Source of the DNA: Nitrosococcus oceani ATCC 19707
GTDB taxonomy: Bacteria > Pseudomonadota > Gammaproteobacteria > Nitrosococcales > Nitrosococcaceae
DNA length: 32,000 bases
Reading direction: 5' to 3'
Assembly (NCBI RefSeq): GCF_000012805.1
Contig: NC_007484.1
Location: 690,001 to 722,000, forward strand
Shown in pieces: positions 4,887 to 32,000 of the stretch. Every line of letters begins with the position of its first letter. Position 1 is the first letter of the stretch. The notes beneath the pieces were generated by a model. The model saw only the letters and a list, made by a program, of their open reading frames with translations, ran no database searches and had not been told where the DNA came from. The position numbers and the translations under genes were made by a program.

Positions 4887-4893
4887 GACACTC

Positions 4894-11385: not shown

Positions 11386-11749
11386 CCTCCGGGCTAAGCG
11401 AAAAGGCTTTCTGTTGTTGACTACCTTGGCCGCCCTGTTGACAGGGCTGGTCGGTTTTCTACTCATGCACCGGCTGCAGACTGAATCCGTGCAATCCGTC
11501 CGGCACAGTCTCGATGTCTGGCGGATGACTTTGATGTGTATTCGCTGGACATCGATCACCCTTGTCGCACTCAGCTGGAAATACTTGATCGCCCGGTTGG
11601 TGAGTATAGGCGTGATCAGCCACGACAAAGTTGCATCACTAACAGAGATGCGTTGGCGCGCTGTCACCTGGCTGGTGTTATTGGAACTGGTGTTAGGGCA
11701 GGGGGTGCTGGTTAAGACAGTGAGCCTGGCAGTTGGAGCCGTGCCATGA
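11375..11749 (+). CDS. small ICE membrane protein (unassigned family)
   Basis: This frame is open from 11120, but it overlaps the upstream gene until 11385. Hydrophobic helices (FLLLTTLAALLTGLVGFLL; VTWLVLLELVLGQGVLV) lie downstream of 11385. The stop overlaps the traG ATG (ATGA at 11746-11749). The start is not resolved: GTG 11369/11375 or a later ATG. Confidence 0.45.
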   Translation: MFNNLRAKRKGFLLLTTLAALLTGLVGFLLMHRLQTESVQSVRHSLDVWRMTLMCIRWTSITLVALSWKYLIARLVSIGVISHDKVASLTEMRWRAVTWLVLLELVLGQGVLVKTVSLAVGAVP

Positions 11750-13311
11750 GCGTCGACAGCTATCTGGAACTCTTTACTTCCCTTTTCGGCTGGACCTTCT
11801 ACGGCATTCTCTGGGATGTGTTGGTCAGTACCGGCATCGTCTATTTGCCGTTCCTGGGGATTCTGATCGATAACTGGCGCGAACCAGCGCAGGGCGGTGA
11901 GGTCGGTCATGCCAGCGGCCTCTCGCTGCGGCGCATGGAGATCGAACTGTTTATCGCGTTACTGGTGGTGGTCCTGGCCGGGCAACCCGCTGCCCTCACG
12001 CCACTCAATGCCGGTACCTTGTCCTATTCCCCGCCACCAACGCTATTGGATCCAACGCCGGCTGCAGCGACGGTGGCTGCGCCCCAGAGTACCTATGGCA
12101 CAACGGGCTTCACCGGTACCGCCGCAACCGTCAATGTTCCCGTCTGGTGGTACGGTGTCATCGCACTGAGTTCGGGTTTGAACCACGCTATCGTCGAAGG
12201 CCTGCCGACCGTGGCGGATATGCGGACGTTCGAGCAGCAGGCGCATTTAGCCACCATTGCTGATCCACGCCTCAGGCAGGAAGTGAGCGAGTTCTTCAGC
12301 CAGTGCTACATTCCGGCGCGTTCCAAATACCAGGCTGAACGACCAAACATAGCGGCCATCAACGGCATTCTCGCCACGTACGGTGTCGATGACCCGGATT
12401 GGATGGGGTCCCACGTCTATCGGGACACCTCGGGCTATTACGACACCCTGCGCCCTGCCAGCCCAATCACTGGCTGGGCATACATTGCGGCCAGAGATAC
12501 CGAGTATGACGCCACATCACCACCGGCCTGGGGAAAACCCTACTGCAAACAGTGGTGGGAAGATGGGGCAATCGGCTTGCGTGAGAAGCTGATCAATGAG
12601 GCAGATGCCACCTCTGCCGGCTTCTCCGGACTGGTAGTCGCCATCGCGCCCGCTCTGGCCAGCGAACAGCAAAACGACGCCGTCGCCAAAACCGTACTGA
12701 CCAACGCGCCGCCCTCCTGGTCGAACAATGAGTTAATCGCCAACAACGCATCCGGAGCAGGGTTGGTCAACACCGCCGGATCTATCATCAAAGGTGGTCT
12801 CGCCACCGGTGGTGTGATCACCGCATCAGCCCTGTTTTCCGTAACCATGACGGCCGTCTTACAATCACTGCCCATGGTGCAGGCCATTATGCTGCTGGGT
12901 ATCTATGCACTGCTCCCATTGGTGGTGGTTTTGTCCCGCTACTCCATAGCCATGATGGTAGTGGGCGGTATGGCGATTTTCACCATCAAGTTCTGGACAG
13001 TGCTCTGGTACCTGGCCATGTGGGTGGATCAGAACCTGATTCTGTCCATGTATCCCGACGTTAACGTTTTCCTGCAGATCTTCGCCAACCCTGGCGAACA
13101 CGACGCCAAGCGCATGTTGCTGAATATGATTACCACCAGCCTCTATCTGGGGCTGCCGTTGCTGTGGAGTGGGATGATGGCGTGGGCGGGGGTGAAAGTC
13201 GGTAGGTCGATTGATTCGGCAGCGAACCCGATCAAGGCGCCAGCGCAGGATGCTGGCAATCAGGGAGGAAGTATCGGCAAGATGGTGCTGACCAAAGGTA
13301 AGAAACGTTAG
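11746..13311 (+). CDS. traG: conjugal transfer protein TraG (TraG N-terminal-domain polytopic membrane protein)
   Basis: 521 aa with multiple TM helices at both ends flanking a periplasmic domain. Last gene of the MPF-G block, where TraG_N proteins sit in this ICE family. Confidence 0.75.
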   Translation: MSVDSYLELFTSLFGWTFYGILWDVLVSTGIVYLPFLGILIDNWREPAQGGEVGHASGLSLRRMEIELFIALLVVVLAGQPAALTPLNAGTLSYSPPPTLLDPTPAAATVAAPQSTYGTTGFTGTAATVNVPVWWYGVIALSSGLNHAIVEGLPTVADMRTFEQQAHLATIADPRLRQEVSEFFSQCYIPARSKYQAERPNIAAINGILATYGVDDPDWMGSHVYRDTSGYYDTLRPASPITGWAYIAARDTEYDATSPPAWGKPYCKQWWEDGAIGLREKLINEADATSAGFSGLVVAIAPALASEQQNDAVAKTVLTNAPPSWSNNELIANNASGAGLVNTAGSIIKGGLATGGVITASALFSVTMTAVLQSLPMVQAIMLLGIYALLPLVVVLSRYSIAMMVVGGMAIFTIKFWTVLWYLAMWVDQNLILSMYPDVNVFLQIFANPGEHDAKRMLLNMITTSLYLGLPLLWSGMMAWAGVKVGRSIDSAANPIKAPAQDAGNQGGSIGKMVLTKGKKR

Positions 13312-13538
13312 TCCTTTTCGTACCAGCCGGTAGCATCAGTGCCGTCGTCGAGTTTCCCTGTTTTGTAATTCAGGGCTCCGCCTCGAACAGCACTTGAGAC
13401 TGCATCATCAGACTTGGTCTCAGCGCTTTCAGCCAGCATACCAAGCATACTGCGCAATAAGTGGCCGGCCGCTGCAAAAATAGCGAAGACGGCTAGGAAT
13501 ATCTTTTGCAAACGAGGCCTTTCTTTTACGGTTTTCAC
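13308..13538 (-). CDS. hypothetical 76-aa single-pass membrane protein, possible fifth gene of the helicase-methylase-ATPase operon
   Basis: The GTG start overlaps the DUF499 stop (GTGA, 13535-13538). GAGGAAG RBS a few nt upstream. TM helix [16 protein letters not shown]. No terminator-like hairpin in this 230-bp stretch. Its stop overlaps the convergent traG stop. Confidence 0.4.
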
Positions 13539-16384
13539 GACTCTTCCTCAAATTCTGCTGAGCTAAATTTCAAGACATTACAATTCTCTTTGACTGTTCG
13601 CTGCATGGACTCATTGAATCCATCCTGGCTATTGGCCTCAATCTCCACGGATATCCTGACATTCACGCCGAGCTTGGCAGTGAACTGCTGTACGACTTCA
13701 TCCATTATGGTGGCAAAGTCCATTTTGGCTTTGACCGGGTCGAGTGAAATAGTGCCGTAGAACTGCTTCTTGGTTGCTGCTGGTGTTGTTGTGGCAGCGC
13801 CTCCTAACCCGCCGGATGTTGGGGTTGGTGTCCCCGTGCCGCTCGCGCCACCAACCGGTATTGTAGTGCCTCCAGGTTCGCCGCCTGCAGTCCCGGGCTC
13901 CGCCGTTGGTGGAGTGGGCTGCTGTGTATTTTCGCGGTAAGCAACTGCTGCCTCGCGATCTATCAGGAGAGAGGATTCATCCACCGTGGCAATAGAATTA
14001 CGCCCGAATGTGAAGCCGAGATAACGGTCGCCTTCCTTGCCAGAGGCGAAGGCGAAGTAATCTTCAACCTCGATCCCCTGGGTGATGGCATTGCGGAAAA
14101 CACTGTCGTTAACAAGCCGAGGCAGGTACAGGTAGTGACAGCAGTCCTGCCAGACCTTCAACGCACTGACGTCGTTTACGCCTTCTTTCAGGTACCACTG
14201 TTTAAGTACATTGCGAAGATGAATAGGAGACCACTCGTAAATCATCCACTCCTCTTCGCGCAATTTATCCTCGATCGCCTGAATCAAGTTGGGCGCTGCG
14301 GGTGAGACGGGAACCACCTCCCAATTGAGAGTTGGCTTACCCTTTACGAATTCTTCAACTGGGGCGATTAACCATTTGTAAGTTTCGCGCACCAGTTGGG
14401 CAAGCGACTGATCTGCGCCATCACGATTACGCTTGGCCTGGTTCAAATGAGACAAATCCTGATTCAAGTGGCCATTTTCGATATCTGTGGCAATGGATTG
14501 CCACGCCAGGAAAATGCGGGCCTGCTCTTTGAGTCGGCCAACCACATCGTAGTCGGGAGCCAGGAAGATCAGGCGATTTTGTTTTTGCCGTGGTTGGTCG
14601 CCGCGGTTGCGCAAAATCTCTTCTGCGGCAGAAAATGCCTGGTTGGTCTCACTGCGACTGTAGGCTGTGTTTGTCGGCAACACGACCAGTCGAGGGCCCG
14701 TACCATAGTCGTCCGGGACATCGACGGAAGGTGTAAAGACGTGCACGCCACCAAACTGGTGATTTCTGCCGAATACCTGGGTTACTCGGGTTTTTAACAA
14801 TGGCAGGAGTTCATCTCGTTCGTTGATGTTCTGCTTGCGGCTCTCCATTTCTCGGCGCAGGTTGGGTTTGGTATCTAACCAGAATCGGTCTTTGTCGGAA
14901 TAGAGATAATGCAGTCGATCACGTAAGCGCTTGAGCACGTCTTCAAATACACCGAGCGTTTGACCGGGTTGTGCCGCGCCCAGCAGGATGCGTTCGACCT
15001 GAACACCGCGAATCATCTGCTCAGTGGTTGATGGTGCGCTGCCGAGAAAAATGGTCCGGGCGGTGCGGCGCGCGGCTTGCACGCTGCCGAACAGGGTGTG
15101 GTGGCCATCGATGTCATAGGGGGCCGAGCGGGTACCGTCCACTTCTCGTTCAATCACGGGTTCCCACCCCTGAGGCAGGTAGTGAATGCTCTTGTTGCGC
15201 ACGTTACCATCTTCTAACGGTAATGAACCCGGCATGATCAGCGCATCTTTGTTATCCGAGTTCCACAGGCGGTGGATAACAATGGCCATATATTGAAGAA
15301 CGCCACGGGTGCGCTGAAATTTTTCAAGCGTGGACCAGTCCTCGTACAAGCGGTCGAAAATTTCCGGGTGGATCGGGTAAGACCGGCAAAGACGCTCGAA
15401 ATATTCGTTGGATTGGGTTTCGACCGGAAACTTTTCGGCGTTCTGACGATAAAAGTCAGAGAACTGACGGCTGATACCCTCCACCTCGGCGCGTTCACCC
15501 GGGTTCTCAAATAATCTGCGACGCACAATCTCGAACGCTTCCTCGGTGCCTACCGGCTTCCAGACGGACTCAACTCGTGCGAAGTACTTCTCCAGCGAGT
15601 TAAGGGCGCGCTGCCCTTGCGTGCCTCCAACTTCCAGTTCTGATTCGGGCAGCGATGCCAATAGAATGGCATTGGGTACTGCCTTCAGCGCTTCGGTGAG
15701 CGCCTGAATAAAACTGACATTGCTATCGAATGTGCCAGCCTTATATTGCTTGCCAAGCTCCAGTTGTCGAATAAACGCCACCAGCTCATCCACCAGAATC
15801 ACACAAGGGGCTGCCTTGCTGATCAGTTCAGTGAGAACCTCTTTTCCGGGAGAGGTGCCGTCAGCGTCGCTGTCGGCGACCATCTGATAACCCTCATCCC
15901 CCAGAAGTTGCCAGGCCAGCTCGCCCCACAACGTGTTGGCAGTTATGCTCCCGTACTTCCTGGGCTGGCTAGGCGACAATTTGATGCCGTCAATCACCGC
16001 CACTCTGGCCGAGGGAAGGCTCTGAATCCCTGCCTCATCTAATACCGGAGGAATACCCGTGAGTTTGTCGGTGCCCACCTTGCGCGAAGCCAGGTGAAAC
16101 ACGGCCAACAGCGTGTGGGTCTTGCCGCCACCGAAAGCGGTCTGCAATTGAATGACCGGGTCGCCACCGAGCCCAGCCAACCGTTGCGCGACAGAGATGA
16201 GTAAGAGGCGCATGCCCTCGGTGATATAAGTGCGGGAGAAGAACATCTCCGCATCCTGATACTCTGCAGTGGCTGTGCCATTGGCTACCTGGGTGATGTC
16301 AGCCGCAAACTCGGACTGTTTGAAGGTGCCTTCCAGAACATCCTTGTGCGGAGTGGCAATTTCTCGCCAGGGTTTCAAACTCAT
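13535..16384 (-). CDS. DUF499-family P-loop ATPase (COG1483-like) of a helicase-methylase-ATPase defence system
   Basis: ORF 13535..16465 trimmed to ATG 16384, which has a GAGGA RBS and lies 10 nt after the MTase stop. The N-terminus [16 protein letters not shown]...EFAADI is the typical DUF499 start. Walker [11 protein letters not shown], Walker [11 protein letters not shown] Gly/Pro/Thr-rich linker precedes a small C-terminal domain. Confidence 0.85.
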
Positions 16385-16394
16385 GGTGTAGTCC

Positions 16395-19304
16395 TCAAAA
16401 ATCCAGTCCGAGTTCGGCTTGCGAGCCACTGTGGCCAACCTCGTGGGAGGCGGTGACAATGGCATGCCAGGAACCGATCAATTCGTTGTAGGCGCGGGCA
16501 TCTTCGGCCCACTTCTTGCGTTCGCACAGGGTGTACAGGTGATAGGCGAGCTGACGAATGGGTTCTCCTTTCTCCGGCATCTTGGCCAGTAGTTCGCCAG
16601 CGGCCGATTCACCCTGGTTGTTGAGACTGCGAATCATTTGGTGGCAGGCTTCCCAGATAGGTGTGCGGTTGTCTTTAATGGGATCCCAATCGGCTTCGTA
16701 CTCCGCCCATTTCAATAGGCGAACCTTGCCGCCGCCGGATTCGACGACCCCGGCTGTATTTACGCCATCTACCGTCGTGCCCTTTGCTTGCGCTAGCACG
16801 TTCGCTTCACCAAAGGGACCAGTACTCCATCCGTACTGATCAAACCAACTGGAGCAGAACTGGGTGTCGGCATCGAAACTGCCGGATTCCGGGCTGAGGT
16901 ATTCCGTGATGGCGCGGTTGATCAGGATTAGCGCATCATGCACGCTCATACGTGAACCATCCTGATTCAGTACGGCCTCGTACTTGGAGAAGATGGCCAT
17001 CCCCGGGCCAATCGCGGCCTGGGCTAAATCCACGGGAGCGATGGGTGTAGTGCCCGTTTCTCCGCCGATCATGGCTTCTAGTGCGTCGGGCATCTGTTCA
17101 CGCAGTTCACGTTGGAAGTCGCGTCGTGAAATAGATTCGGCTTCGATTTCACGTTTTTTGCATACCAGAACAACAGAGGAAGCCAAAGCATTAGTACCAG
17201 AGCCAATCATACGATTGGACATTTCAGTTCTCATTGGCCAAGTACCATCGATAGAAAAGCCTGCTCTAATCACAGCCTCTAAAAATGTTTCCCAGCCTGT
17301 ATTAGATGTGGCCCCTTCTTTGGTTTCTGATTGTTTGAACGCGTAGTAAATAGATACAGGGAAAGCAGGATGCCCTTTGTCAGCCATATTATGAATGGCT
17401 TGTGTCATACCATCTAGAAAGAAGGTCTCTGCTTTTTCTTTTGTGCCATGACGATAAGGTATAGCGACCAATTCCTCAGCCTTTGGAACCGCCATAGTAG
17501 CGAACAAACTTGGATAGAATGATTTTAATGAGCGCCTCATCCATACGTAAAAAAAATCAGACAGGTCGGCATAACCAATATTGTCATAGTAAGGCGGGTC
17601 AGTTGAAATGACCTTTTCAGCACTAATGTTTTGGGTTGCTGCGTCTTGTTGAACTGCTATTCCACCACTAGATGGAATCATTCGGCTAAGCACGTCATTT
17701 GCCCATCCAATTCCTCCCATAAAGTTTCCAGTGGAGTCTGAGAGTGGATTTGGTTCTGCAAAATCCCATGTCATTGGTATAGCTTGGCGGCCAAATGTGT
17801 TTCGAGTGCTACTTCTCGATGAATCCCATGTGCAAATGGTTGAGCCTCTGTCTGCCAATTTATTTATCGCGAAGGTCAAATAAACCGCCAAAGCATCGCC
17901 ATAAGCAGTCGCACCTCTGCCTCCATCATCAATACCGATTCCATCGTCGGTCATTCCCGCTGCTTTGGCATCAGCGATGGCTTTGTAGCAGGCTTCCTGA
18001 ACTAGATCAGAGAATGTATTTAGAGCGACAAGTTGGCGGGGAGTGAAAAGATCGCCATAGGATTTCATACCGTACATCGGTGGTGAAAACCAACGAGGGT
18101 TTTCTGGCATTAATGCATCTGGCTTCCAGTCCGGTGATGCAGCACTTGCGGCCTGCTCCATTTCTGCGGTGGGCGTAAGATAGATACGCCCACTTTTCCC
18201 CTCAGCTACAACCGCCATTAGTCGCTGACCCAGATTTCCGGATTGTGCCTGTGCATAAATGTATTTCGGGTCAATAGGTGTATCTGATAGTAGGCAGGTA
18301 AAGTTGGCCCCACGACCCAGTTTAGTTCCGTTCCTTGCTTCTGCTGGCGGAACTCCCATACACACTTCGAATTGATAGTTATGTCCTTCGACTAACGGAT
18401 TAACATAAGACTCTTTTCCCTTCTTGGTGGAAAGTAGAAAGCTAGACGCTAGCGGGATATCGGCATGGCTGAAAGCCGGATTGGGGCTTTTCACGGTTCT
18501 GGCCCAGAGCCAGGCGATAACAGTCAGTTCCTGTCCCTGGTATGGTTTCAGGTCGGGTCGTTCTGCGACCATCTCCTGCGTGATCTTGATCCTAGGGTAG
18601 AGATTACCGATACGCTCGAATGCTTCCTCCCGCATCCAGTGGCCGTAACGACGCACATCCTCGGCCAGGCCTCTTGCGCCAGACCAGTCATCCATCAACT
18701 TGCCTTGCTTCTCGCCTTGGGGCAGAGGACCTACTGGTCGTTGCCCGGCAAACTTCGGAGGGATCTCGATCATGGCTTTGTTGATCATCACCGCCACTGG
18801 ATTCAAGTCACTGGCATAACTTTCTAATCCCAGTCGCTGCGCCTCCAGTGGGATCGCCCCTCCGCCCGCAAATGGATCATGAAAGGCCGGGAGTTTATCC
18901 GGATTGAAAAGTTCTGCTGCTTGGGGATGATTGCGGTTTAGATGACAAGTTTCGCGCCAGCTTTCCCAGATCGCTTCACGTGCGCGATTCAGCACCTCCT
19001 CATTATTGGTGTTTTCCCACTTCACCAAATCACGGATTATCTGAAAGAGTTTCTCGCGTTTGATCTCGGCCTCTTTCTTGTTAACCCCATACTTGAATCC
19101 TTCTCCTTGCTGGTATCCGGGATCGTTGACCATTTGCGCAAACAACACGGCCCTTGCTGCTGCCAAAGGTCGGCGCGCCCACCACAGATGTAAGGTTGAG
19201 GGATGACCATGCCGAATTGACTTTTCTCGCGCTGCCGCTGTGTTGATGTCATCCAGCGGTAGCGCGACTTCAATCAGTTTTTTGGGTGTTTTTATTTCGG
19301 CCAT
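16395..19304 (-). CDS. DUF1156-domain N6-adenine DNA methyltransferase (COG1743-like)
   Basis: 969 aa. The N-terminus ([37 protein letters not shown]) is the DUF1156 signature. SAM motif I is [19 protein letters not shown]. Catalytic motif IV is D-P-P-Y at 17589-17600 ([11 protein letters not shown]). About 400 aa separate motifs I and IV. Confidence 0.9.
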
Positions 19305-19313: not shown

Positions 19314-21550
<2,237 letters not shown>

Positions 21551-21575
21551 TATCTAAATTTATAAATATTGAGAC
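21551..21575. repeat. IS630-family left terminal inverted repeat
   Basis: See the mobile element entry; aligned by hand to the reverse complement of 22428-22452. Confidence 0.7.
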
Positions 21576-21602
21576 ATTTGTGTTATATTCATTCATACTG
21601 TT

Positions 21603-21938
21603 GTGATGAGATGTTCAATTGATTTGCGCAAACGAGTAATCGATTTTGTAAGGGGCGGTGGAAGCAAGGCGGAAGCGGCCCGGAGATTTCAGGTAGGCCG
21701 CGCGAGCATTTATCGCTGGTTGTCGCAGGATGATGCGCTGTGTTACGAGCGTCCCGGCCCTCGCCGTTCACACAAGCTGGACTGGGAGGCTTTACGGGTC
21801 CATGTGGAAGACAAGGCTGCTCTCACCTATAAAGAACGCGCCCGGCATTTTGGCGTTTCGTATTACTGTATTTGGCATGCGATGCACAAAATGGGGTTAA
21901 CCCGTAAAAAAAATGACGGGGTACACGCAGCGCTGTAA
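21603..21938 (+). CDS. IS630-family transposase, N-terminal HTH part (orfA)
   Basis: HTH-like segments ([20 protein letters not shown]; [25 protein letters not shown]). The ORF track starts at GTG 21603; ATG 21606 is more likely. The frame ends shortly after an A8 run at 21906-21913. Confidence 0.75.
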
Positions 21939-22437
21939 TATGAAAAGAAAGAGCTTTCTTCGCCTTCGTGAACGCTATCGCCGCCGCGGCAAAAGATTTG
22001 TCTATCTTGATGAAAGCGGTTTTGAGCCGGAGGTTTCCCGTCGTTACGCTTACGCTCCAAAGGGGCGGCGTGTTTATGGTCTGATCTCCGGTCATCGCAG
22101 ACCGCGAACCTCTTTATTGGCCGCCCGTATGGATGAAGGCTTTGAAGCGCCGTTTCTATTTGAGGGAACCTGTAACACGGCTGTGTTCAATGCATGGCTG
22201 GAAAAAGAGCTTTGCCCCTTGCTCAACAGCAACCACATTGTCATCATGGATAATGCTCCGTTCCACAAAGCCGTTTCTTCACGTGAAATCATCAAAAAAA
22301 CAGGGGCGGGAATTTTATTCCTCCCCCCTTATTCCCCTGACTTTAACCCCATAGAAAAAGACTTCGGAAATATCAAAAAAATCAGAGAATACAACGAACA
22401 TGAAACCCTTGAGAATATCGTTGCAGCGTATCAGTAA
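21913..22437 (+). CDS. IS630-family transposase, DDE catalytic part (orfB, +1 frame relative to orfA)
   Basis: DD(35)E-type triad context: VYLDESGF, IVIMDNAPFHK, LPPYSPDFNPIEKDFGNIK. The frame opens inside the A8 run. A full-length protein requires a one-nt shift there. Confidence 0.8.
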   Translation: MTGYTQRCNMKRKSFLRLRERYRRRGKRFVYLDESGFEPEVSRRYAYAPKGRRVYGLISGHRRPRTSLLAARMDEGFEAPFLFEGTCNTAVFNAWLEKELCPLLNSNHIVIMDNAPFHKAVSSREIIKKTGAGILFLPPYSPDFNPIEKDFGNIKKIREYNEHETLENIVAAYQ

Positions 22438-22452
22438 TTATAGATTTAGCTA
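22428..22452. repeat. IS630-family right terminal inverted repeat
   Basis: The reverse complement matches 21551-21575 at 19/25 positions. It overlaps the transposase stop codon. Confidence 0.7.
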
Positions 22453-23772
22453 TAACTCATCGAAATTGTCCGGCAGGTCGATCTGCCTTTTTACTGTGTA
22501 TTCGCCAAGGGTTTCTGCGACACCTTTCTGAACACTGTGGCCACGAGCGACCAGCTTCATCTCATCCAAGCGAGATTCAAGACGTTTGCGCCGGCGCTTC
22601 AGCGATTGGTATATCGCTTCTGGACTTGAGGCTAGGCGACGCTGCAGTTGTGTGAGTGCAAAGCCAACTGTGCCCCGGCGTTTACCATCCAGATTGTCGG
22701 CGCGGTTCATCTCATTGCGGACGTAGTCGGTCACTTGCGCGTAAAGCGCTGCTTCTGCATCGGAGAGGTCATAGTTCGCGCTGTATGCGCGGCGCTCGGG
22801 GAAGAGTGGCGTGCCATCAAACTTGAGTAGTTCCTCTTTCACTATGCGGCGCATCATGTCTGAGACATCTACCTTGTGGGCGCCTTCGCGAAACTTGCCG
22901 TAGAAGCGATCGCCATCCAGCAGTGAAAGCCAAATCTGGAAGTCTTCTTCCTTGCCGTTGTGCGGCGTGGCTGTCATTAATAGAAAGTGACGGGTGATAG
23001 AGCCGAGCAACTCACCCAGTAAAAAGCGCTTGGTCTTGTTGACCTTGTTGCCGAAGTAATTGGCGGAGAGTTTGTGAGCCTCGTCAACGATGATGAGATC
23101 CCACTCAGTGTTTTTCAGTTTTTCCTGGTACTCCTCATTACGCGATAACTGATCCAGGCGGCAGAGAAGTTGATTCTGTTCGTCGAAGTAGTTGCCGGAT
23201 GCACACTGCTCCTGCTTCTCACGGCTGAAGATCTCGAACTGAACACCGAATTTCTCCAGCAGTTCGTCCTGCCACTGCTCGGTGAGGCCGCCGGGAGAGA
23301 CGATCAGGATGCGTTTGGCATCGGCCCGCATCAACAGTTCGCGAATGAGCAATCCAGCCATAATGGTCTTGCCGGCGCCAGGATCGTCGGCCAGCACAAA
23401 TCGTAGCGGCTGCCTGGGTAGCATGGCCTCGTACACAGCAGAAATCTGGTGGGGCAGCGGCTCTACGTTAGAGGTGTGTACCGCCATCATGGGATCAAAC
23501 AGGGCGGCCTGTGAGATACGGTAAGCCTCAAGCCCGAGTTTGAAATCTTCACCTGGCGCATCGAATGCCCAGGGTCGACCTGCCTGAGCCAGCTCAAGCC
23601 GTGCTTCGTCCGAGCGAAATAGCATTTGTTCGCCCAGACGGCCCTGGTTGTCTTTGTAGTAGACAGTGATCGCACTATCGCCGACCGGCTCGACCTGGAC
23701 GATGCGTACGATCTCATTGCCCTGTATGCCTAAAACTTGCGCGTCTTTTTTGATGTCTTCGAGTTTGATCAT
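22453..23772 (-). pseudogene. N-terminal fragment of the SNF2-family helicase (RecA1 lobe), truncated by IS630 insertion
   Basis: 440 codons. Motif [15 protein letters not shown], motif [14 protein letters not shown] (DEAH at about 23071-23094), motif [13 protein letters not shown]. The stop codon TAG (22450-22452) is supplied by the IS end. The ATG overlaps the regulator stop (ATGA, 23769-23772). Confidence 0.85.
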
Positions 23773-25033: not shown

Positions 25034-26881
25034 ATGTGGCCAGATAACGAAACAGAACGTGATTACCTGAATTTCGGTGGGGTGGCCGAGACTGTTGCTG
25101 AAATCACCGTGCAGGCCCAAGGCAGGCCGATTTCTATTGGAGTATCTGGCGCTTGGGGCGTTGGCAAATCATCAATGATAAAGCTGATTCGCACTGCCCT
25201 TACCGAAAAGGACAAAAGTGAGCCAGCCCGATTTATCTATGTGGAGTTCAATGCGTGGCTTTATCAAGGCTACGACGATGCCCGAGCAGCGCTACTTGAA
25301 GTTATTGCAACTAAATTAAATGAAGAAGCTGAAAAGCGAAAAAGCGGTGTCGACAAGGCGAAAGAGCTTTTGCATCGCGTCAACTGGCTGCGCGCAGCCA
25401 AACTGGGCGCTGGTTCAGCGCTCGCACTCGCGCTGGGGCTCCCACCAACAGGCTTGATCGGTGACGTAGTTAGAGTTGGCCGGAAGGTGATTGGAGAAGG
25501 GGCCGGTGCAGAAGAAGCACAGGAAGCGGCCGACGCAGTATCAGAAGTAATTACGACTACAGAAGGCCTAATCAAGGCGAAGCCAGAACTGTCTCCGCCG
25601 CGCGAGATCCATGCTATTCGTGAATGCTTTGAGCAGACGTTAGCCGAGATGGGGGTAACGCTCGTTGTGCTCATCGACGACCTGGATCGCTGTCTTCCAC
25701 CTACCACGATCTCCACGCTCGAAGCTATTCGGCTGTTTCTCTTCCTGGACAACACGGCATTTGTAATCGCAGCCGACGATGCAATGATTAAACATGCGGT
25801 CCGACAGCATTTTGGGGAAGTTGATGACGACTTGGTTATTAACTATTTCGACAAGCTTATCCAGATCCCCATCCGTGTTCCTCCTCTTGGTACGCAGGAA
25901 GTTCGAGCCTATATGATGCTTCTGTTTATCGAGACTACCGATATAGACGATACCCTCAAGGAAGGAATCCGTGAGGCGGTTTGTTCCCAACTTGCCAAAA
26001 GTTGGCGTGGCGAGCGTGTAGACCGGGCATTCATTCAGTCAGTTTATAAAGAAGCGCCGCCGGAGCTGGTGGCGCGTTTTGACACTGCCGATCGCCTCGC
26101 TCCCATCATGGTTAGCGCCAGTCAAATCTCTGGAAACCCACGATTGGTCAAGCGTTTTCTAAACGCGCTCTCAATCAGAATGGCAATCTCGCGTGCTCAT
26201 GACGTAGGCGTTGATGAAGCGGTATTGGCGAAGATGTTGCTGTTCGAGCGCTGCGGTAATCCCAAGGCTTACGATGCTTTGATCGCAGCTGTGAACAATG
26301 ATCCCGAAGGCAAGCCGGTCTTCCTGGCTGAATGGGAGCAGAAAGCTACTTCTGGCGCAGAGGTTGAGCTGGAGCCGCTTTGGGACGATCGCTTTATTAG
26401 AGAATGGCTCACGATCACACCACCGCTCGCTGACACAGATCTGCGAGGAGTGCTTTATGTCAGCAGAGAGCATGCACCACTGATTACACCGGAAGACCGG
26501 TTGTCATCAGAAGGAGCAGAACTACTAACGGCTATCCTCACAAGTCCTGATATGGCGGCGAGTCTGCATGATCGTCTTGCGGTGCTGGCACGTCCAGAGA
26601 CCACCGTAATTATGGACCGCATACTCGAACAGGCGCGGCGCGAGCAGGAATGGGGTACGCCCGCGATCCTGGATGCGTGTATCGCCGTTGCCAAGGCCGA
26701 TCCGTCACTTGGGACGCGCGTCGCAGGCTTCTTGAGCGAGCGACCTCTTGGCCAAATCAAGCCAGGTATCGTACCCAAAATCAGCGACCAGCAGTGGGTT
26801 GCTGAAGTGTTTGCGCGATGGAAGGACGCTGACGTGAGCGCTCCCGTTAAAAAGGCAATTGAAGCTGTGGAGAAGAGCTGA
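25034..26881 (+). CDS. qatA: QatA, KAP-family P-loop NTPase
   Basis: 615 aa. Walker A GAWGVGKS at 25148-25171. Walker B LVVLIDDLDRC. The KAP-type N-terminus (ERDYLNFGGVAETVAEI) is followed by a long helical C-terminal half. First gene of a KAP / unknown / QueC-like / TatD operon. Confidence 0.85.
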   Translation: MWPDNETERDYLNFGGVAETVAEITVQAQGRPISIGVSGAWGVGKSSMIKLIRTALTEKDKSEPARFIYVEFNAWLYQGYDDARAALLEVIATKLNEEAEKRKSGVDKAKELLHRVNWLRAAKLGAGSALALALGLPPTGLIGDVVRVGRKVIGEGAGAEEAQEAADAVSEVITTTEGLIKAKPELSPPREIHAIRECFEQTLAEMGVTLVVLIDDLDRCLPPTTISTLEAIRLFLFLDNTAFVIAADDAMIKHAVRQHFGEVDDDLVINYFDKLIQIPIRVPPLGTQEVRAYMMLLFIETTDIDDTLKEGIREAVCSQLAKSWRGERVDRAFIQSVYKEAPPELVARFDTADRLAPIMVSASQISGNPRLVKRFLNALSIRMAISRAHDVGVDEAVLAKMLLFERCGNPKAYDALIAAVNNDPEGKPVFLAEWEQKATSGAEVELEPLWDDRFIREWLTITPPLADTDLRGVLYVSREHAPLITPEDRLSSEGAELLTAILTSPDMAASLHDRLAVLARPETTVIMDRILEQARREQEWGTPAILDACIAVAKADPSLGTRVAGFLSERPLGQIKPGIVPKISDQQWVAEVFARWKDADVSAPVKKAIEAVEKS

Positions 26882-27726
26882 TGGGCACTTCGTCGTCGAG
26901 CGCCGGCTCTCCCTCTGGCACGCCTATGGTGCCGCCTTGGGTGCCAGACCCGGTGCCACCTGTCGATGGCCCCGGTGATGACGAGGGTGCGCCGCCGGAA
27001 AGCGACGCGCCAGATGAGGCAGTGCAACAGCCAGCCCAGCCTGTACCCATAGCCCCTCCTGCACGTTTTGGCGGTGCGCGCACCAGGCTCGGCCGCTTTG
27101 CTCGCACAGGCTTAGCCGACGATATGCGAAAAGGCGTAGGGCACTACGTCCACAAAGGGCTGGGTGGTAGTGGCACGGCAGTGCGCCGCCTTGGTGGTAC
27201 CGCCCGCACTGCCGGCACGCTGTTTGGTGCGTTATCAGCGGCAGCCGCAGGCCAGGCATCAGGCCCGGGAAATGAGCTGAACCCGACTGTTCTCGCTGGT
27301 CGCAGTGCTGACGAAATAATGAGCGCCGTCGTTGAGGCTGTGCGTCCCGTAGACGGCACGCAAGACGGTGAGGCCAGTCGCGCCGCTATCGGCAAAGCAC
27401 TTTCCGAGCTGCTTACACAGTTTCCGGACGCCGACCTGCTCAACCTGTCAGAGACGCAACGGGTGCTTGCAGTTGAGCGCTTTATTGCATGGGACGTGTT
27501 CAACCGATTTGAGCTTGATCTTGGCAAGACGATTCAGGAAAAAGCACCAAGTGTTGCGAGCGCTCTTTCCCGCCTTAAAGAAGTGAGGGACTTCATTACG
27601 CAAACGGTCGCAGCGAGTTTCAGAAAGCTGTCGACCGACGCAACCGCTCTTGGCAGCAACAAGGTTGCCGCAATTGTCCGAGATGCACTAGGGCTGGCAA
27701 TTGGTGTATTCGAGGGGTATCTGTAA
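26881..27726 (+). CDS. qatB: QatB (Qat-system protein of unknown fold; Pro/Asp-rich N-terminal tail)
   Basis: 281 aa. The start overlaps the qatA stop (TGATG, 26879-26883). N-terminus is MGTSSSSAGSPSGTPMVPPWVPDPVPP. Assigned by its position between the KAP NTPase and the QueC-like gene. Confidence 0.75.
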   Translation: MGTSSSSAGSPSGTPMVPPWVPDPVPPVDGPGDDEGAPPESDAPDEAVQQPAQPVPIAPPARFGGARTRLGRFARTGLADDMRKGVGHYVHKGLGGSGTAVRRLGGTARTAGTLFGALSAAAAGQASGPGNELNPTVLAGRSADEIMSAVVEAVRPVDGTQDGEASRAAIGKALSELLTQFPDADLLNLSETQRVLAVERFIAWDVFNRFELDLGKTIQEKAPSVASALSRLKEVRDFITQTVAASFRKLSTDATALGSNKVAAIVRDALGLAIGVFEGYL

Positions 27727-29004
27727 ATGAGAATTATCTGTGGTCCCTCCAACTCAAAGTTCGAGCGCCTGCGCAAAGACGACTTGCGGTGCATTCTGTA
27801 TGGTTCTGCGGAGAATTCCTATCACGGTTCGGCTGGCGGGACACTTCTCAAACACGTTCAGAGTCTTAAGTTATCCCCAGCGCCTCGCGCGTGGGATCTG
27901 CTGTCGCTCGCTCTCTCGGTCATCTGTGCGGATACAGCTGTCCGGCGCGGCGAGAGCCCGGATGGTTGGACCCGCCAGATTTCTCTTACCGTCGCGGTGA
28001 GTGATCCAGATTTCTGGACAACTCAGCGCTCGCTTATCGAAGATCAGCTTAAGTTCCTTACAACCGATTTATGGGCTCTGCAATTCGTGGGTTATGGCCT
28101 TTACCCTAAACCAAGCAAAGTTCCCAAGCTTCCGGATGGCGATTGCGTTACCTTGCTTTCGGGCGGCCTTGACAGCTTTGTCGGTGCTATCGACCTCGTC
28201 GCTGATGGTAAGGCCCCATTTGCTGTCAGTCAGGTTGCGGCAGGTGATAAGCAATCGCAAGCGGACTTTGCTGCGAAGATCGGTGGCGGACTTAATCATC
28301 TGCAACTGAATCACAACGTCAAATGTCCGGGCGAGAATGAACGTTCACAACGCGCCCGATCATTCATCTTCCTTGCCTATGGCGTTCTGGCTGCTAGTGC
28401 GCAGAAGCACTACCACGATGGTGAGCGCGTTGACCTTTATATTTGCGAAAACGGGTTGATATCGATCAATCCGCCTCTCACGCCGGCCCGGCTCGGTAGT
28501 CTTAGCACGAGGACGACCCACCCGGTTTTTCTGGGATTATTTCAGAGGCTGCTCGATGTTGCTGAACTGCGGATTGCAGTTCGCAATCCATATCAATTTA
28601 GGACGAAAGGCGAAATGCTCCTTGAATGCAAGGACCAGGCATTTCTTAGGAAGCACGCTGCAGAGACAACTAGTTGTGGACGCTATGCGCGCAATGGCTG
28701 GCAACACTGCGGGAGGTGCTTTCCGTGTCTGATCAGACGCGCTGCATTCCATGCATGGGGAAAAGACGATAGGACAAAATATGTCTATGCCGATCTGTCG
28801 AAGAATGATTCGCAGCACGCCCGATATGATGACGTACGATGCGCAGCGATGGCAGCGGCGCTTGTCGATGCAGATGGACTAGACGCGCTTGCGACTAACA
28901 ATCTCAATGCCTTAGCTATGGGCGATCTTACCCCTTATAAGGCCATACTTACTCGTGGAATAAGGGAAGTTGGTCAGTTTCTGGCAGCAGCAGGTGTTCG
29001 ATGA
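27727..29004 (+). CDS. qatC: QatC, QueC-like PP-loop ATPase
   Basis: 425 aa. PP-loop SGGLDS at 28159-28176. C-terminal Cys cluster (SCGRYARNGWQHCGRCFPCLIRRAAF) like the QueC zinc site. The ATG immediately follows the qatB TAA. Confidence 0.85.
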   Translation: MRIICGPSNSKFERLRKDDLRCILYGSAENSYHGSAGGTLLKHVQSLKLSPAPRAWDLLSLALSVICADTAVRRGESPDGWTRQISLTVAVSDPDFWTTQRSLIEDQLKFLTTDLWALQFVGYGLYPKPSKVPKLPDGDCVTLLSGGLDSFVGAIDLVADGKAPFAVSQVAAGDKQSQADFAAKIGGGLNHLQLNHNVKCPGENERSQRARSFIFLAYGVLAASAQKHYHDGERVDLYICENGLISINPPLTPARLGSLSTRTTHPVFLGLFQRLLDVAELRIAVRNPYQFRTKGEMLLECKDQAFLRKHAAETTSCGRYARNGWQHCGRCFPCLIRRAAFHAWGKDDRTKYVYADLSKNDSQHARYDDVRCAAMAAALVDADGLDALATNNLNALAMGDLTPYKAILTRGIREVGQFLAAAGVR

Positions 29005-29729
29005 TCGACTTTCACTGTCACGTCGATCTATACCCTGACCCGCATGCGATTGCCCGGGAATGTCGTGAGCGAAAGCTAAACGTGTTGTCTGTGACCACGA
29101 CACCTAGCGCGTGGGCAGGTACCTCGGCTCTAGGCGGAGGCGCAATCATAACGGCGCTTGGTCTGCACCCTCAACTCGCACATGAGAGAAAGGGTGAGTT
29201 GCCGTTGTTCGATCGCATACTGCCTGGCAGCGCTTATGTAGGCGAGGTCGGATTGGATGGCGCGTCTGAGTTCAAGACACATTGGCAAGACCAAATCGAT
29301 GTCTTTCGACACATACTTGGCGCGTGCACCGAAGCCGGTGGAAGGGTTATGTCAATTCACAGTCGGCGTGCAAGTACGCCGGTACTTGACCTGTTAGAGC
29401 TGTATCCGGAGTCGGGCACACCGATTCTTCATTGGTTCACCGGGACAGCGCGTGAGCTGGATCGGGCTATTTCTCTGGGATGTTGGTTTAGTGTTGGGCC
29501 TGCGATGCTCAGGAGCAAACGTGGAAAGGACTTAGTGATGCGCATGCCTCGAGAGCGTGTACTTACAGAGTCAGACGGACCCTTTGCACAAATAAAAGAA
29601 AGATCGATTTTCCCCTGGGAGGTAAATCTTGCGGAAGCAAAGTTAGCGGACCTCTGGGACTCCGATCCGGGGTCTACGGGGCAGTTGCTGAGTGAAAATC
29701 TGAATATTCTCTTGTCAATTGGTAGGTAA
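29001..29729 (+). CDS. qatD: QatD, TatD-family metal-dependent hydrolase/DNase
   Basis: 242 aa. N-terminal IDFHCHVD (HxH metal motif), GEVGLD, SIHSR, HWFTG and ESDGP blocks typical of TatD. ATGA overlap with qatC. Confidence 0.85.
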   Translation: MIDFHCHVDLYPDPHAIARECRERKLNVLSVTTTPSAWAGTSALGGGAIITALGLHPQLAHERKGELPLFDRILPGSAYVGEVGLDGASEFKTHWQDQIDVFRHILGACTEAGGRVMSIHSRRASTPVLDLLELYPESGTPILHWFTGTARELDRAISLGCWFSVGPAMLRSKRGKDLVMRMPRERVLTESDGPFAQIKERSIFPWEVNLAEAKLADLWDSDPGSTGQLLSENLNILLSIGR

Positions 29730-29810
29730 CTTAAGTCGGAGTGATGGAGTGGCATTAAAGTCAATATCCGCCATCTCACTGTTGTAGGTATGAAGCGTTT
29801 ACACTATTCT

Positions 29811-29823
29811 GTCAAAAATTGAC
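29811..29823. promoter_or_regulatory. short palindrome GTCAA-AAA-TTGAC 15 nt upstream of the HTH gene (possible operator)
   Basis: Read directly. 5-bp arms, adjacent to ATG 29839. No further support. Confidence 0.25.
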
Positions 29824-29838
29824 GGATTTTCCTTCGCC

Positions 29839-30060
29839 ATGCCTGACGAGTCAGTGGACGCAGAGATTCTTACGATCAAGGAGGTTGCCCTCTATCTGAA
29901 GGTCACCGAGCGGACTATCTATCGCTTGGCAGCGGACAAAAAAATCCCCGGCTTCAAGGTGGGTGGGGCTTGGCGATTTTCCAGGAAGGAAATCGATCAG
30001 TGGATTCGGCGTCAGTCTGAAGACCAGCATGGGGACGCGGGTGAGCACGATGACAAGTGA
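29839..30060 (+). CDS. excisionase/MerR-type helix-turn-helix DNA-binding protein (HTH_17-like)
   Basis: 73 aa. The sequence LTIKEVALYLKVTERTIYRLAADKKIPGFKVGGAWRFSRKEIDQWI is the classic Xis/AlpA-type HTH. Acidic C-terminal tail. The 3' end overlaps the next gene. Confidence 0.8.
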   Translation: MPDESVDAEILTIKEVALYLKVTERTIYRLAADKKIPGFKVGGAWRFSRKEIDQWIRRQSEDQHGDAGEHDDK

Positions 30061-30424
30061 ACAGGACGATACGAACGACCAGCTGGAACGATCCCTGATC
30101 GATGTTGCAGTCGAGAGCTGGAGATTTGCCCGACTGTTCTCCCGTCTTGTCAACAAACTGGATGCTGGCGAATCCACTCGTTACGTCAACCAGCTGCGCT
30201 ACTTCCAGAAAAAGCTTGAAGAGAGCCTGGATGCCAGTGGCCTGAAACTGGTGAATGTTGAAGGTCAGCCATATGACCCTGGAATGGCTGCATCGGCGCT
30301 TAATATTGGGGATTTCGGCCCTGATGATGAGTTGCTGGTTGATCAAATGGTGGAGCCCATCATCATGGGGCCAGAAGGCTTGCGCAAGCAGGGCACGGTA
30401 ATGCTTAGGAAGGTGCATGCATGA
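30050..30424 (+). CDS. minimal GrpE-like nucleotide-exchange-factor homologue
   Basis: About 124 aa. The C-terminal block (VEGQPYDPGMAASAL...VEPIIMGPEGLRKQGTVMLRKV) mirrors the GrpE beta-domain pattern (G-x-x-FDP-x-x-H-x-A ... G-x-x-x-R-x-A-x-V-x-V). The start is uncertain: ATG 30050 is preferred, with ATG 30029 or GTG 30041 possible. The stop overlaps the Hsp70 ATG. Confidence 0.6.
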   Translation: MTSEQDDTNDQLERSLIDVAVESWRFARLFSRLVNKLDAGESTRYVNQLRYFQKKLEESLDASGLKLVNVEGQPYDPGMAASALNIGDFGPDDELLVDQMVEPIIMGPEGLRKQGTVMLRKVHA

Positions 30425-32000
30425 AATACGTCGGGATTGATCTTGGAACAACGAACAGTGCAATTTGCTCCTATGACGGAGAGTCGGTGCGCCTTTACAA
30501 AAGTCCCGATCAAAATGACGTCACGCCATCAGCCATTTTTATTGATAGACGGGGCAACAAATACTTAGGCAAGCGAGCCTATGATAGTGCGGCCAAGAAT
30601 CCTGATAATGCCGCTACGAAATTTAAGCGCATGATGGGGACCAGTACCCCAGTCAAGCTTGCCGCCGTTGATATCACCATGACGCCAGAGGAGTGTTCGT
30701 CGGAGATCCTCAAGCTCTGCTTTGGGTATTTACCAGAGGAAATTAGAAACGGTGGAGAAACCGGAACCGTAATCACCGTTCCTGCCGCTTTTAATCAGAT
30801 GCAAAAGGACGCCACGTTGGCTGCTGCTGAAATGGCTGGCCTGGGTAGCGTCGCGTTAATGCAAGAGCCAGTTGCGGCTGTCATGTGTGTTATGAAACAG
30901 CGCAAAGGCGACGGCGTTTTTCTGGTGTTCGATCTCGGTGGTGGGACACTGGATATTGCGATTGCTGAAAGTATCAGTGGACGGGTGAGCCTGCTGGCTC
31001 ATGGTGGTGTCGCGATGTGTGGTGGCACCGACTTCGATCGCGCCATTCTTGATAACGTGGTCAAGCCATGGTTGATGTCCACCTTTGATCTTCCTGACGA
31101 TTTCAGCGCGAATTCGAAATACAAATCGCTTCTGAGAATGTGTCTTTGGGCCTCGGAAAAGGCAAAGATTGAATTGTCGGCAAAAGAGGACGCTGTCATC
31201 AGCCTCACAGAGTCTGATTTAGGTGTTAATGATGAATCTGGTGATGAAATCTATGTCGATATCCCCTTTACCAGAGAGCTGCTCGATAGCTTGATCGCCG
31301 ACAAGGTCGATGAATCTATCCAATCGGCTCGAGATACACTCGAGAAAGCGGGTCTGAGTCCTCATGATGTCGAGCGCGTCGTGTTCATCGGCGGACCAAC
31401 CCAATACAAACCGCTGCGTGATCGAGTCGCGTTTGAGCTCGGCATAGCACCATCATCCGATATGAATCCCATGACGGCCGTCGCAGAGGGCGCAGCCGTT
31501 TTTGCAGAATCGATCGACTGGAGTTCACAAAGCCGTGGCCGAAAGAATGCTCGGGGAGCACTCAGCACCGGCGGCTCGTTGGACCTCTCTTTCAATTACA
31601 TATCAAGAACGCCGGATTCGAAGGCGAAAATTGTAGCGAAACTTGGAGGGGATGCAGCGGCAGGCGTTGAGTTTCAGATCGATAGCCTGGATACCGGTTG
31701 GTCCTCGGGGCGAATGGCTCTTCAAGACGGGGCTGGCGTCGAACTCTCCCTGGCGAAGCCCGGGGAAAACACATTCAAAGTGTTTGTATTCGACTCCAAG
31801 GGTGGGCCTGTCGCATTAGGCGATGACAAAATTGTTATATCGCGAACAGCAGCCAGTATTGATGCCATTCCTGCGTCGCACTCGATCGGTGTCGAGGCGC
31901 GGGACAAGCTTGGTGGGCGTCTCGTCCTCGATCATCTTGTTCGCGAAGGTGATCAATTGCCAAAGAAAGGCAAGAAAATCTTCAAAACGGAGGAGTCACT
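30421..32000 (+). CDS. atypical Hsp70-family ATPase (partial; ORF still open at window end)
   Basis: My own translation; the ORF is absent from the track because it has no stop in the window. Actin-fold NBD signatures present: VGIDLGTTNSA, VFDLGGGTLDIA, GGTDFD, VFIGGPTQYKPL, NPMTAVAEGAAVFA. A non-canonical segment of about 110 aa follows (residues about 368-480). After it comes an SBD-beta-like stretch (IPASHSIGVEARDKLGGRLVLDHLVREGDQLPKKGKKIF). Confidence 0.85.
   Translation, partial: MKYVGIDLGTTNSAICSYDGESVRLYKSPDQNDVTPSAIFIDRRGNKYLGKRAYDSAAKNPDNAATKFKRMMGTSTPVKLAAVDITMTPEECSSEILKLCFGYLPEEIRNGGETGTVITVPAAFNQMQKDATLAAAEMAGLGSVALMQEPVAAVMCVMKQRKGDGVFLVFDLGGGTLDIAIAESISGRVSLLAHGGVAMCGGTDFDRAILDNVVKPWLMSTFDLPDDFSANSKYKSLLRMCLWASEKAKIELSAKEDAVISLTESDLGVNDESGDEIYVDIPFTRELLDSLIADKVDESIQSARDTLEKAGLSPHDVERVVFIGGPTQYKPLRDRVAFELGIAPSSDMNPMTAVAEGAAVFAESIDWSSQSRGRKNARGALSTGGSLDLSFNYISRTPDSKAKIVAKLGGDAAAGVEFQIDSLDTGWSSGRMALQDGAGVELSLAKPGENTFKVFVFDSKGGPVALGDDKIVISRTAASIDAIPASHSIGVEARDKLGGRLVLDHLVREGDQLPKKGKKIFKTEES

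Follow-up and report, generated by a model that had tools for sequence, protein, structure and literature searches.

The 32,000-nt stretch of the Nitrosococcus oceani ATCC 19707 genome analyzed here (hereafter the window) ends within an atypical Hsp70 gene, which is truncated by the window end and is preceded on the + strand by a small GrpE-like gene and by a gene for a helix-turn-helix (HTH) protein. In an initial annotation, these genes had been described as a three-gene, HTH-led unit. The three overlapping genes were found at the positions claimed (HTH gene at 29839-30060, ATG codons of the two genes that follow at 30050 and 30421); the unit, however, proved to be only the 5' part of a larger cassette, which has a core of five genes and in which the HTH gene is optional. 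This cassette very probably encodes a dedicated machine of Hsp70, nucleotide-exchange factor and AAA+ ATPase with its own membrane partner. The features of the window that belong to it are listed below (aa, amino acids; NBD, nucleotide-binding domain; SBD, substrate-binding domain).

29808..29826, no strand: palindrome/hairpin TCTGTCAAAAATTGACGGA (terminator-like scan: 8 pairs, then TTTTCCTT)
29839..30060, + strand: HTH_17 (excisionase/MerR-like, MAD1-type) DNA-binding protein, 73 aa (open reading frame; Pfam HTH_17, E = 2.9e-19)
30050..30424, + strand: minimal GrpE-type protein, 124 aa (ATG at 30050 within the HTH gene; TGA at 30422-30424)
30421..32000, + strand: atypical Hsp70, first 526 of 830 codons (Pfam HSP70, E = 1.4e-53, aa 4-362 only)
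30421..31509, + strand: Hsp70 NBD, aa 1-363 (catalytic residues intact)
31510..31860 (approximate), + strand: family-specific insert of about 115 aa in the interval between NBD and SBD, aa ~364-480 (alignment with DnaK, HscA and HscC)
31861..32000, + strand: start of the SBD-beta-like domain, from D481 (conserved opening motif)

Conservation was assessed in 80 loci, each from a different GTDB species (labeled L006, L085 and so forth where they must be told apart). Genes beyond the window end were viewed on contig L085, which carries the N. oceani Hsp70 and for which the window coordinate equals the L085 coordinate plus 22425. Residue invariance was judged across 32 members of the Hsp70 family, and Hsp70 domain limits were taken from alignment with E. 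coli DnaK, HscA and HscC. Defense models were those of PADLOC-DB v2.0.0 and NCBIfam. For the flanks of the cassette, 121 proteins from 40 loci were surveyed at a PADLOC cut-off of E ≤ 1e-10, without matched random control loci.

Atypical Hsp70 and its GrpE-type companion

The full-length Hsp70 comprises 830 aa, and the portion encoded in the window matched the N. oceani ATCC 19707 protein annotated as 'Heat shock protein Hsp70' at 100% identity. In agreement with the initial annotation, all four ATPase signatures (GIDLGTTNS, DLGGGTLD, GGTDFD and IGGPTQ) were present, and residues D7, K69, E149, D171, T176 and D178, equivalent to D8, K70, E171, D194, T199 and D201 of DnaK, were invariant. With these catalytic residues intact, the ATPase looks active as judged from sequence. 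The NBD is followed by an insert of about 115 aa (previously put at about 110 aa) that is missing from E. coli DnaK, HscA and HscC and had no Pfam or PDB sequence match; it has no counterpart in the HscC alignment and so is not a normal feature of that clade. Downstream of the insert, the linker 'VLLLD' is replaced by 'RTAASID' (...ISRTAASIDAIP...), and the loss of the canonical linker was likewise borne out.

Pfam and PDB profiles stop at residue 363 of the Hsp70. Beyond this point, the opening motif of the SBD-beta domain, D-x-x-P-x(3)-S-x-G-x-E, is kept, with D481, P484, S488, G490 and E492 shared with DnaK, HscA and HscC, and hhalign of the Hsp70 against the canonical SBD-beta was collinear over 99 columns at a weak E-value of 0.082. 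A PDB profile search with the C-terminal 466 aa gave nothing significant. The C-terminus is long and probably helical, with about 95 residues more than that of DnaK; the protein is 32%, 27% and 25% identical to DnaK, HscA and HscC, respectively. Membership in these three families was rejected: the NCBIfam scores were far below the cut-offs (198.8 bits for DnaK against cut-offs of 648 and 822; 187.7 bits for HscA against 620), and the insert and C-terminal extension are found in none of the three.

The small protein was modeled with AlphaFold2 from an alignment that included 55 diverse relatives, which yielded a confident model (pLDDT 95.7, pTM 0.84) of two helices (residues 3-34 and 39-62) followed by a small beta domain. 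When this model was compared to the PDB by Foldseek, ranks 1 to 13 were all GrpE or GrpEL1 (9a81, 9bls, 4ani, 3a6m, 8gb3, 1dkg), with E-values of 4.6e-4 to 0.34, probabilities up to 1.00, about 120-137 aligned columns and query-normalized TM-scores of 0.36-0.53; matches beyond rank 13 were unrelated, with E-values of about 1 or higher. Since the model is confident and its top structural matches are GrpE only, the small protein, as modeled, has a GrpE fold that lacks the N-terminal tail and the greater part of the long helix, in keeping with the minimal GrpE without a long coiled coil that had been proposed. An earlier AlphaFold2 model based on a shallow alignment (83-100% identity) had a pLDDT of 57 and matched generic helical hairpins in Foldseek; it was superseded. 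A PDB sequence profile search with that shallow alignment gave nothing significant, and a metagenome scan with E. coli GrpE for a diverse profile returned only sequences at least 91% identical.

Sequence signals for the GrpE relationship were weak but convergent. GrpE was the sole Pfam match of the small protein (13 bits, E = 0.084, below the 25.8 cut-off) and the top Pfam family for 7 of 56 diverse relatives, and no NCBIfam match was found. With the diverse small-protein profile, GrpE 4ANI was the only match in a PDB profile search (E = 0.94). Residues 19-80 of the small protein were placed on residues 110-172 of Geobacillus kaustophilus GrpE by profile alignment, and residues 48-99 on residues 122-175 of E. 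coli GrpE by hhalign (E = 0.028). The family is large: clustering at 90% identity gave at least 2,834 groups, every one carrying a hypothetical annotation, and clustering at 50% gave 618. Longer relatives were also noted (P0241, P0262, P0334, P0278 and P0321), of which P0241 is a tandem duplication; others carry N-terminal membrane segments, or regions like EVE/PD-(D/E)xK or HsdR-N. Either genuine fusions or separate genes merged during gene calling on metagenome contigs may account for these long relatives.

The Hsp70 ATG at 30421 overlaps the stop codon of the small gene (ATGA), and its frame is uninterrupted to nt 32000. The same 4-nt overlap was observed in 71 of 72 independent loci, and thus the coupling of the two genes is not due to chance. 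The small protein is predicted to accelerate ADP release from its cognate Hsp70, to which this conserved junction ties it genetically. Tight coupling had been claimed for all three genes. By contrast to the small gene/Hsp70 junction, the overlap of the HTH gene with the small gene is confined to this lineage; elsewhere, where an HTH gene is present, it is mostly separated from the small gene by a gap of 14-44 nt. An alternative in-frame ATG at 30029 would extend the small protein to 131 aa.

About 25 of the 80 loci have the HTH gene immediately 5' of the small gene. Its product scored 86.7 bits against the NCBIfam model antiphage_MADS1 (cut-off 80) and matched PADLOC mad1 with E = 5.7e-9. It is an optional, generic MAD1-type regulator that heads the cassette in about a third of loci. 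MAD1 has been described as a widespread regulator type whose deletion had little effect on defense in MADS, the one system in which it was tested and a system defined by mandatory mad6-8 together with the mad2 methyltransferase (10.1101/2023.03.30.534895). Although the HTH protein passes the MAD1 cut-off, MAD2-8 are missing from the cassette, and membership in MADS was rejected for want of any further MADS gene.

Upstream of the HTH gene, the palindrome TCTGTCAAAAATTGACGGA ends 12 nt before the HTH start and is a candidate operator of the HTH protein or, alternatively, a weak terminator of the qat operon. The region 29770-29838 of the window holds a conserved block, TTACACTATTCTGTCAAAAATTGACGGATTTTCC, that includes the palindrome TGTCAA-AAA-TTGACG, and the pattern ...ACACTATTCTG(T/C)CA..TTGAC.GATTTTCC..ATG was found again 5' of the HTH gene at several further loci. 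This block may represent the operator and promoter of the cassette. A consensus scan for a sigma-70-like promoter 5' of the HTH gene found none.

Downstream components and conservation of the cassette

Further components had been expected beyond the window, and genes for an AAA ATPase, a membrane protein and a partner protein were found there. In N. oceani, the Hsp70 gene is followed by genes for the AAA ATPase (480 aa), a PG_binding_1 (peptidoglycan-binding) protein of about 508 aa, a 669-aa protein without family match and then a small accessory gene that is interrupted by an insertion sequence (IS) element. Neither dnaJ nor clpB, which would have marked an ordinary proteostasis operon, was found downstream when the contig was extended.

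The AAA module (residues ~240-462) belongs to the classical clade (FtsH/PAN/Cdc48-like) and has a GPPG(T/C)GKT Walker A motif, a DE Walker B motif and a second region of homology with arginines. The protein matched PADLOC IetA with E = 3.5e-22, and its NCBIfam IteA score was 86 bits against a cut-off of 510. Its 240-aa N-domain showed only a weak resemblance to TGS/beta-grasp domains, with a 'P.G..LPDG' start (L085:10494-10740; PDB profile E = 0.38).

The membrane protein (202-718 aa) is an inner-membrane protein with a short cytoplasmic N-terminus, in which residues ~12-25 form the nearly invariant motif KGFAGLSS[LM]VSDVD (KGFAGLSSLVSDVD peptide). This motif was present in nearly all copies and in the paralogue of the membrane protein, and is followed by a Pro/Ser/Ala-rich linker and a single transmembrane helix. 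The periplasmic part consists of a conserved '(I/V)RYC...YNxRC' domain, often a PG_binding_1 domain, and a C-terminus that varies between loci; in Shewanella it contains EGF-like repeats, and in N. oceani the repeat 'CISGEYPSLCKHS' occurs in it four times.

The partner protein is a cytoplasmic protein of 550-670 aa overall; it spans 530-590 aa from its conserved start, 'NPFxxLGVTTRDDRRRIVELAEEKSL...ARSDLTNPRTRL', or about 670 aa with an N-terminal extension. Some copies carry an N-terminal zinc ribbon (CFSCG...CGAC in N. oceani, L085:13477-13560), and a minority end in a hydrophobic C-terminus instead of a beta-rich one. PDB profile searches with the whole protein and with its N-terminal 127 aa gave nothing significant. 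Its candidacy as a J-domain protein was not supported: it has no HPD motif and no DnaJ match in Pfam, NCBIfam or PDB profiles, and its hhalign comparison to four E. coli J domains covered 10 columns only (E = 0.13).

Among the 80 loci, the Hsp70 was detected in 76, the small gene in 67, the AAA gene in 58, the membrane protein gene in 54 and the partner gene in 56. The order is kept as small gene, Hsp70 (nearly always 828-831 aa), AAA (~479 aa), membrane protein and partner, with a gap of 2-5 nt between Hsp70 and AAA genes in 61 of 65 loci and of 6-14 nt between AAA and membrane protein genes in most. Minimal five-gene cassettes were found in, for example, Serratia grimesii NBRC 13537 and E. 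coli HeN100. Extended cassettes add genes for 214-aa, 165-aa lipoprotein-like, 350-aa membrane-protein-paralogue, 217-aa secreted and RDD membrane proteins; the second membrane paralogue has a weak GspM-like match, and the 214-aa accessory gene follows the partner gene in about 23 loci.

More divergent relatives are found on two plasmids. In Vibrio rumoiensis, all five genes are present, with 54% Hsp70 identity and the last two genes swapped. On plasmid pAM01 of Aminobacter sp. MSH1, the GrpE-like/Hsp70 pair is kept at 35% Hsp70 identity, with no AAA gene in the operon. Directly upstream of this pair is a gene for an 841-aa protein (L174:6097-8622), the first 333 residues of which match the partner protein (E = 3e-22) and the rest of which consists of a transmembrane helix, a periplasmic Cys-domain and a peptidoglycan-binding module. 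This fusion argues that the partner and membrane proteins work together physically.

In loci L179 (17214-22493) and L180 (10239-15704), co-directional genes follow the cassette (448, 551 and 132 aa, a Sel1-repeat protein and an SNase-domain protein). The staphylococcal-nuclease-like gene of this lineage could be a candidate lineage-specific effector.

Distribution and genomic surroundings

The cassette was detected in Gamma-, Beta- and Alphaproteobacteria, Planctomycetota, Acidobacteriota and other hosts. Identity over the 526 Hsp70 residues of the window was 72-97%, and over the full length 68-100% when the 80 loci were compared to the L006 reference; up to 97% identity was observed between members of different classes and phyla. 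Within one species the distribution was sporadic, as, out of 5,426 complete E. coli genomes, only one carried the cassette and a second held a fragment of the AAA gene only. In phage genomes, no copy of the small protein was found and the Hsp70 gave only generic DnaK-NBD matches. On a Shewanella plasmid, the cassette lies immediately after TnsABCDE, as Tn7-like cargo. Taken together, the high identity across phyla, the rarity in E. coli and the residence in Tn7-like cargo and on plasmids agree with the proposal that this is an accessory mobile module and not a housekeeping one. The module had also been called compositionally foreign. Its GC content was indeed lower, at 52.2% compared to 56.6% for nt 1-13400, yet this contrast is modest and had been overstated; its 60-nt windows ranged over 38-65% GC, and not the 37-52% reported.

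The placement behind two defense systems was confirmed. QatABCD is directly 5' of the cassette (25034-29729; PADLOC E-values of 2.5e-36 to 1.1e-149), and a BrxR/WYL regulator and an Hma system, complete apart from a split hmaA, lie further upstream. The Hma genes are HmaC (13535-16465), HmaB (16395-19304) and hmaA (19314-23772, - strand). The last is split by an insert of about 850 nt (~21597-22449) into two open reading frames that correspond to positions 1-436 (22450-23772) and 436-1173 (19314-21596) of the HmaA model. The insert encodes a frameshifted IS630/Tc1-type DDE transposase (DESGF...MDNAPFHK...SPDFNPIE), and the Hma system of the window is thus probably inactive. The 214-aa accessory gene of the N. 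oceani cassette (L085:15519-17641) is also cut by an IS, which carries a DDE_Tnp_1/DUF772 transposase (L085:15792-17120) and leaves pieces of 86 and 109 aa. As these two insertions show, IS activity is eroding the N. oceani island. At 4747-7620 (+ strand) of the window, a 957-aa protein presumed to belong to the backbone of an integrative and conjugative element (ICE) was observed to contain a mad8-like region (PADLOC E = 6e-11).

In E. coli HeN100 (NZ_CP044443, 4115537-4122320; L173:14001-20784; WP_076487106 to WP_133301086), the five-gene copy resides in a CP4-like integrative island together with RADAR rdrB, a dptF remnant, a CbtA/YeeU toxin-antitoxin pair and IS elements. Upstream in L179, a BrxR gene is divergent from the cassette and is followed by a type I restriction-modification system and a McrB-like gene, and in L176 many IS elements and a DruA-domain gene fragment are nearby. 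PADLOC matches in the flank survey were to Hhe, Mokosh MkoA/C, retron RT-Toprim and RT-TIR, SoFic, AbiEii, PDC-S37, PDC-S21, PDC-M27C, type I and mad2-like methyltransferases, type IV RecD, ZorD-like helicases and WYL regulators; Pfam matches among the same proteins included six integrases, Tn3 transposases, TrwB/TrwC, DUF932 and ImpB.

Relation to known systems and candidate roles

Like the DnaK-GrpE(-DnaJ)-ClpB system, the cassette combines an Hsp70 with NBD and SBD-beta-like domain, a GrpE-fold factor and a co-encoded AAA+ protein, has intact ATPase residues, and likely follows an ATP-driven logic of holding, remodeling and unfolding. Unlike that system, its Hsp70 is 830 aa in length with the insert, no VLLLD and about 95 extra C-terminal residues; its GrpE is only 124 aa; its AAA+ protein, unlike ClpB, consists of one classical-clade module and has a novel N-domain of 240 aa; no HPD J-domain protein was detected with it; and it has a dedicated membrane/peptidoglycan-binding partner and is mobile and sporadic. 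HscC with DjlB/DjlC of E. coli is comparable as a specialized, sporadic Hsp70 for which a function at the membrane together with dedicated partners has been proposed (PMC8215388). HscC differs, however, in its length of 556 aa, in the absence of the insert, in being only 25% identical and in its presumed independence from exchange factors; true J domains are found in its partners, and it has neither an AAA+ partner nor a peptidoglycan-binding protein.

Hsp70 proteins have also been placed in predicted conflict systems. The GAP1-N2 GTPase-centric systems (Kaur et al. 2020, PMC7159879) resemble the cassette in combining Hsp70 and GrpE with non-chaperone partners but are built on GTPases, include FNIII proteins fused to DnaJ or TPR and are found chiefly in Actinobacteria and Firmicutes, whereas the cassette has no core GTPase and occurs mostly in Proteobacteria. 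Type III CoCoNuT CnuD and Hsp70-McrB fusions (PMC11090510) similarly bring an Hsp70-like NBD/SBD into a predicted defense system; CnuD, by contrast to the intact motifs of the cassette Hsp70, has degenerate Walker-like motifs, and its McrBC-type GTPases and HEPN RNases have no counterpart in the cassette, which has GrpE. Compared to IetAS (Gao_Iet), the cassette AAA is IetA-like but falls far below the IteA cut-off, has a different N-domain and is not accompanied by the protease IetS. Zorya (ZorAB) offers an analogy only, as a peptidoglycan-binding inner-membrane component with cytoplasmic ATP-dependent proteins in defense islands; no homology to it was detected, and Zorya uses a MotAB-like ion-driven motor and no chaperone. 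Overall, no known defense model was matched, in line with the earlier view of an undescribed composition, and the searchable full-text literature contained no description of the cassette, with subscription-only literature outside the search.

Based on genomic context, we favor a role of the cassette in conflict or in defense against phages or other invaders, a role to which we assign a probability of roughly 0.55. A defense module had also been the interpretation of the initial annotation; its mobility and its frequent position among defense genes were upheld, while some loci lie in ordinary surroundings. In the mechanism that we consider for this role, the Hsp70, by means of its SBD and ATP cycle, would act on the partner protein and/or the cytoplasmic tail of the membrane protein, either holding or remodeling them. 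Its private GrpE would reset the Hsp70 and set the rate of release, and the AAA+ protein, expected to work as a hexameric unfoldase, would unfold or extract the same clients. The variable, wall-binding periplasmic end would report envelope events such as phage attack on the wall, and the chaperone cycle would serve as the switch by which the infected cell mounts its response. Such an envelope-sensing switch is, as a specific mechanism, rather unlikely. More broadly, and still tentatively, the cassette could be the first Hsp70-centered bacterial immune system, in which a chaperone cycle connects a cytoplasmic response against phages or other invaders to a periplasmic sensor that is hypervariable and bound to peptidoglycan; we regard this proposal as possible but somewhat doubtful.

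Several observations weigh against a defense role or against the mechanism outlined for it. The anticipated effector was not recognizable: no nuclease, protease, NADase or pore former was identified in the cassette. The core genes had no PADLOC match except for the generic IetA/TRIP13-like similarity of the AAA. With its altered linker, the Hsp70 may differ from DnaK in the coupling of ATP to substrate binding. Profile searches found no canonical J-domain protein among the downstream genes, and the J-like look of the partner N-terminus ('NPFxxLGV...ARSDLTNPRxR') is a lead by eye only. Association with defense genes was frequent, in a survey that had no random control and leaves enrichment unquantified, and in L177 and L178, which lack defense neighbors, the cassette is bordered by the isc operon and tctABC, and only a ParD gene is close by. 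In addition, the N. oceani copy may not be fully functional.

The alternative that a housekeeping paralogue of the DnaK/HscA/HscC type and its GrpE lie beside a defense island by chance could draw on the 32% identity of the NBD to DnaK and on the order of regulator, grpE and dnaK known from classical heat-shock operons. The initial annotation had taken the opposite view from a premise on housekeeping chaperone organization that is E. coli-centric; in Firmicutes, hrcA-grpE-dnaK-dnaJ operons with a repressor gene at their head are the standard arrangement, and therefore gene order alone is no evidence. Architecture and distribution nevertheless contradict the housekeeping alternative, which is judged refuted and is extremely improbable: scores of about 200 bits compare to family cut-offs of 648-822; the insert, linker and C-terminal extension do not occur in DnaK, HscA or HscC; dnaJ and clpB are missing downstream; the cassette is carried by a single E. 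coli genome, with near-identical copies across phyla; and L177 and L178 also carry a normal hscA nearby.

A module for envelope proteostasis or envelope stress on mobile elements is a more serious competitor, though one we consider unlikely. Here the Hsp70, GrpE and AAA+ proteins would see to the maintenance, insertion or extraction of the wall-anchored membrane proteins encoded with them and confer tolerance of envelope damage by conjugation, bacteriocins, type VI secretion system attack, antibiotics or metals, by analogy with the proposed chaperoning of membrane proteins by HscC-DjlB/DjlC. The peptidoglycan-binding domains and single-pass membrane partners, the secreted/lipoprotein-like, GspM-like paralogue and RDD membrane proteins added in extended variants, the lack of a recognizable toxic effector, the loci in ordinary chromosomal surroundings and the HscC precedent (PMC8215388) are all consistent with it. 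It accounts less well for the frequent placement among defense genes, in Tn7-like cargo and in integrative islands, for the extreme sporadicity inside E. coli and for a periplasmic end that is hypervariable, like that of immune sensors; moreover, the usual envelope-stress sigma factor or two-component regulators are not linked to the cassette. Less probable again is an addiction module of the toxin-antitoxin type, in which the membrane or partner protein would be toxic unless held by Hsp70/AAA+ and the module would stabilize the mobile element. The AAA resembles IetA, reported to be antitoxin-like (PMC13069673), and the restraint of IetS by IetA and the role of SecB in toxin-antitoxin-chaperone systems provide analogies; the tight operon coupling and the residence on plasmids, ICEs and islands also speak for it. 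Five to eleven genes would, however, be large for such a module, and no known toxin fold was detected. The distinction from a defense role is also blurred, since addiction modules usually act in abortive infection as well.

The prokaryotic Hsp70 types listed in the review by Mayer are DnaK, HscA and HscC only, and the specialized Hsp70s are said there to dispense with exchange factors (PMC8215388). The cassette apparently represents a fourth, mobile and so far undescribed type of prokaryotic Hsp70 machine, and would add to this list an Hsp70 that keeps a stripped-down GrpE and has recruited AAA+ and membrane partners for itself. It is common, as judged from the number of GrpE-like clusters, and the native E. 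coli copy is convenient for experiments. If its role is anti-phage, the cassette would define a new mechanistic class of immunity based on chaperone-driven switching, possibly with cell-wall sensing. If its role is not in defense, it would still be a chaperone machine linked to the envelope that had gone unrecognized and that is spread by Tn7-like elements, plasmids and ICEs.

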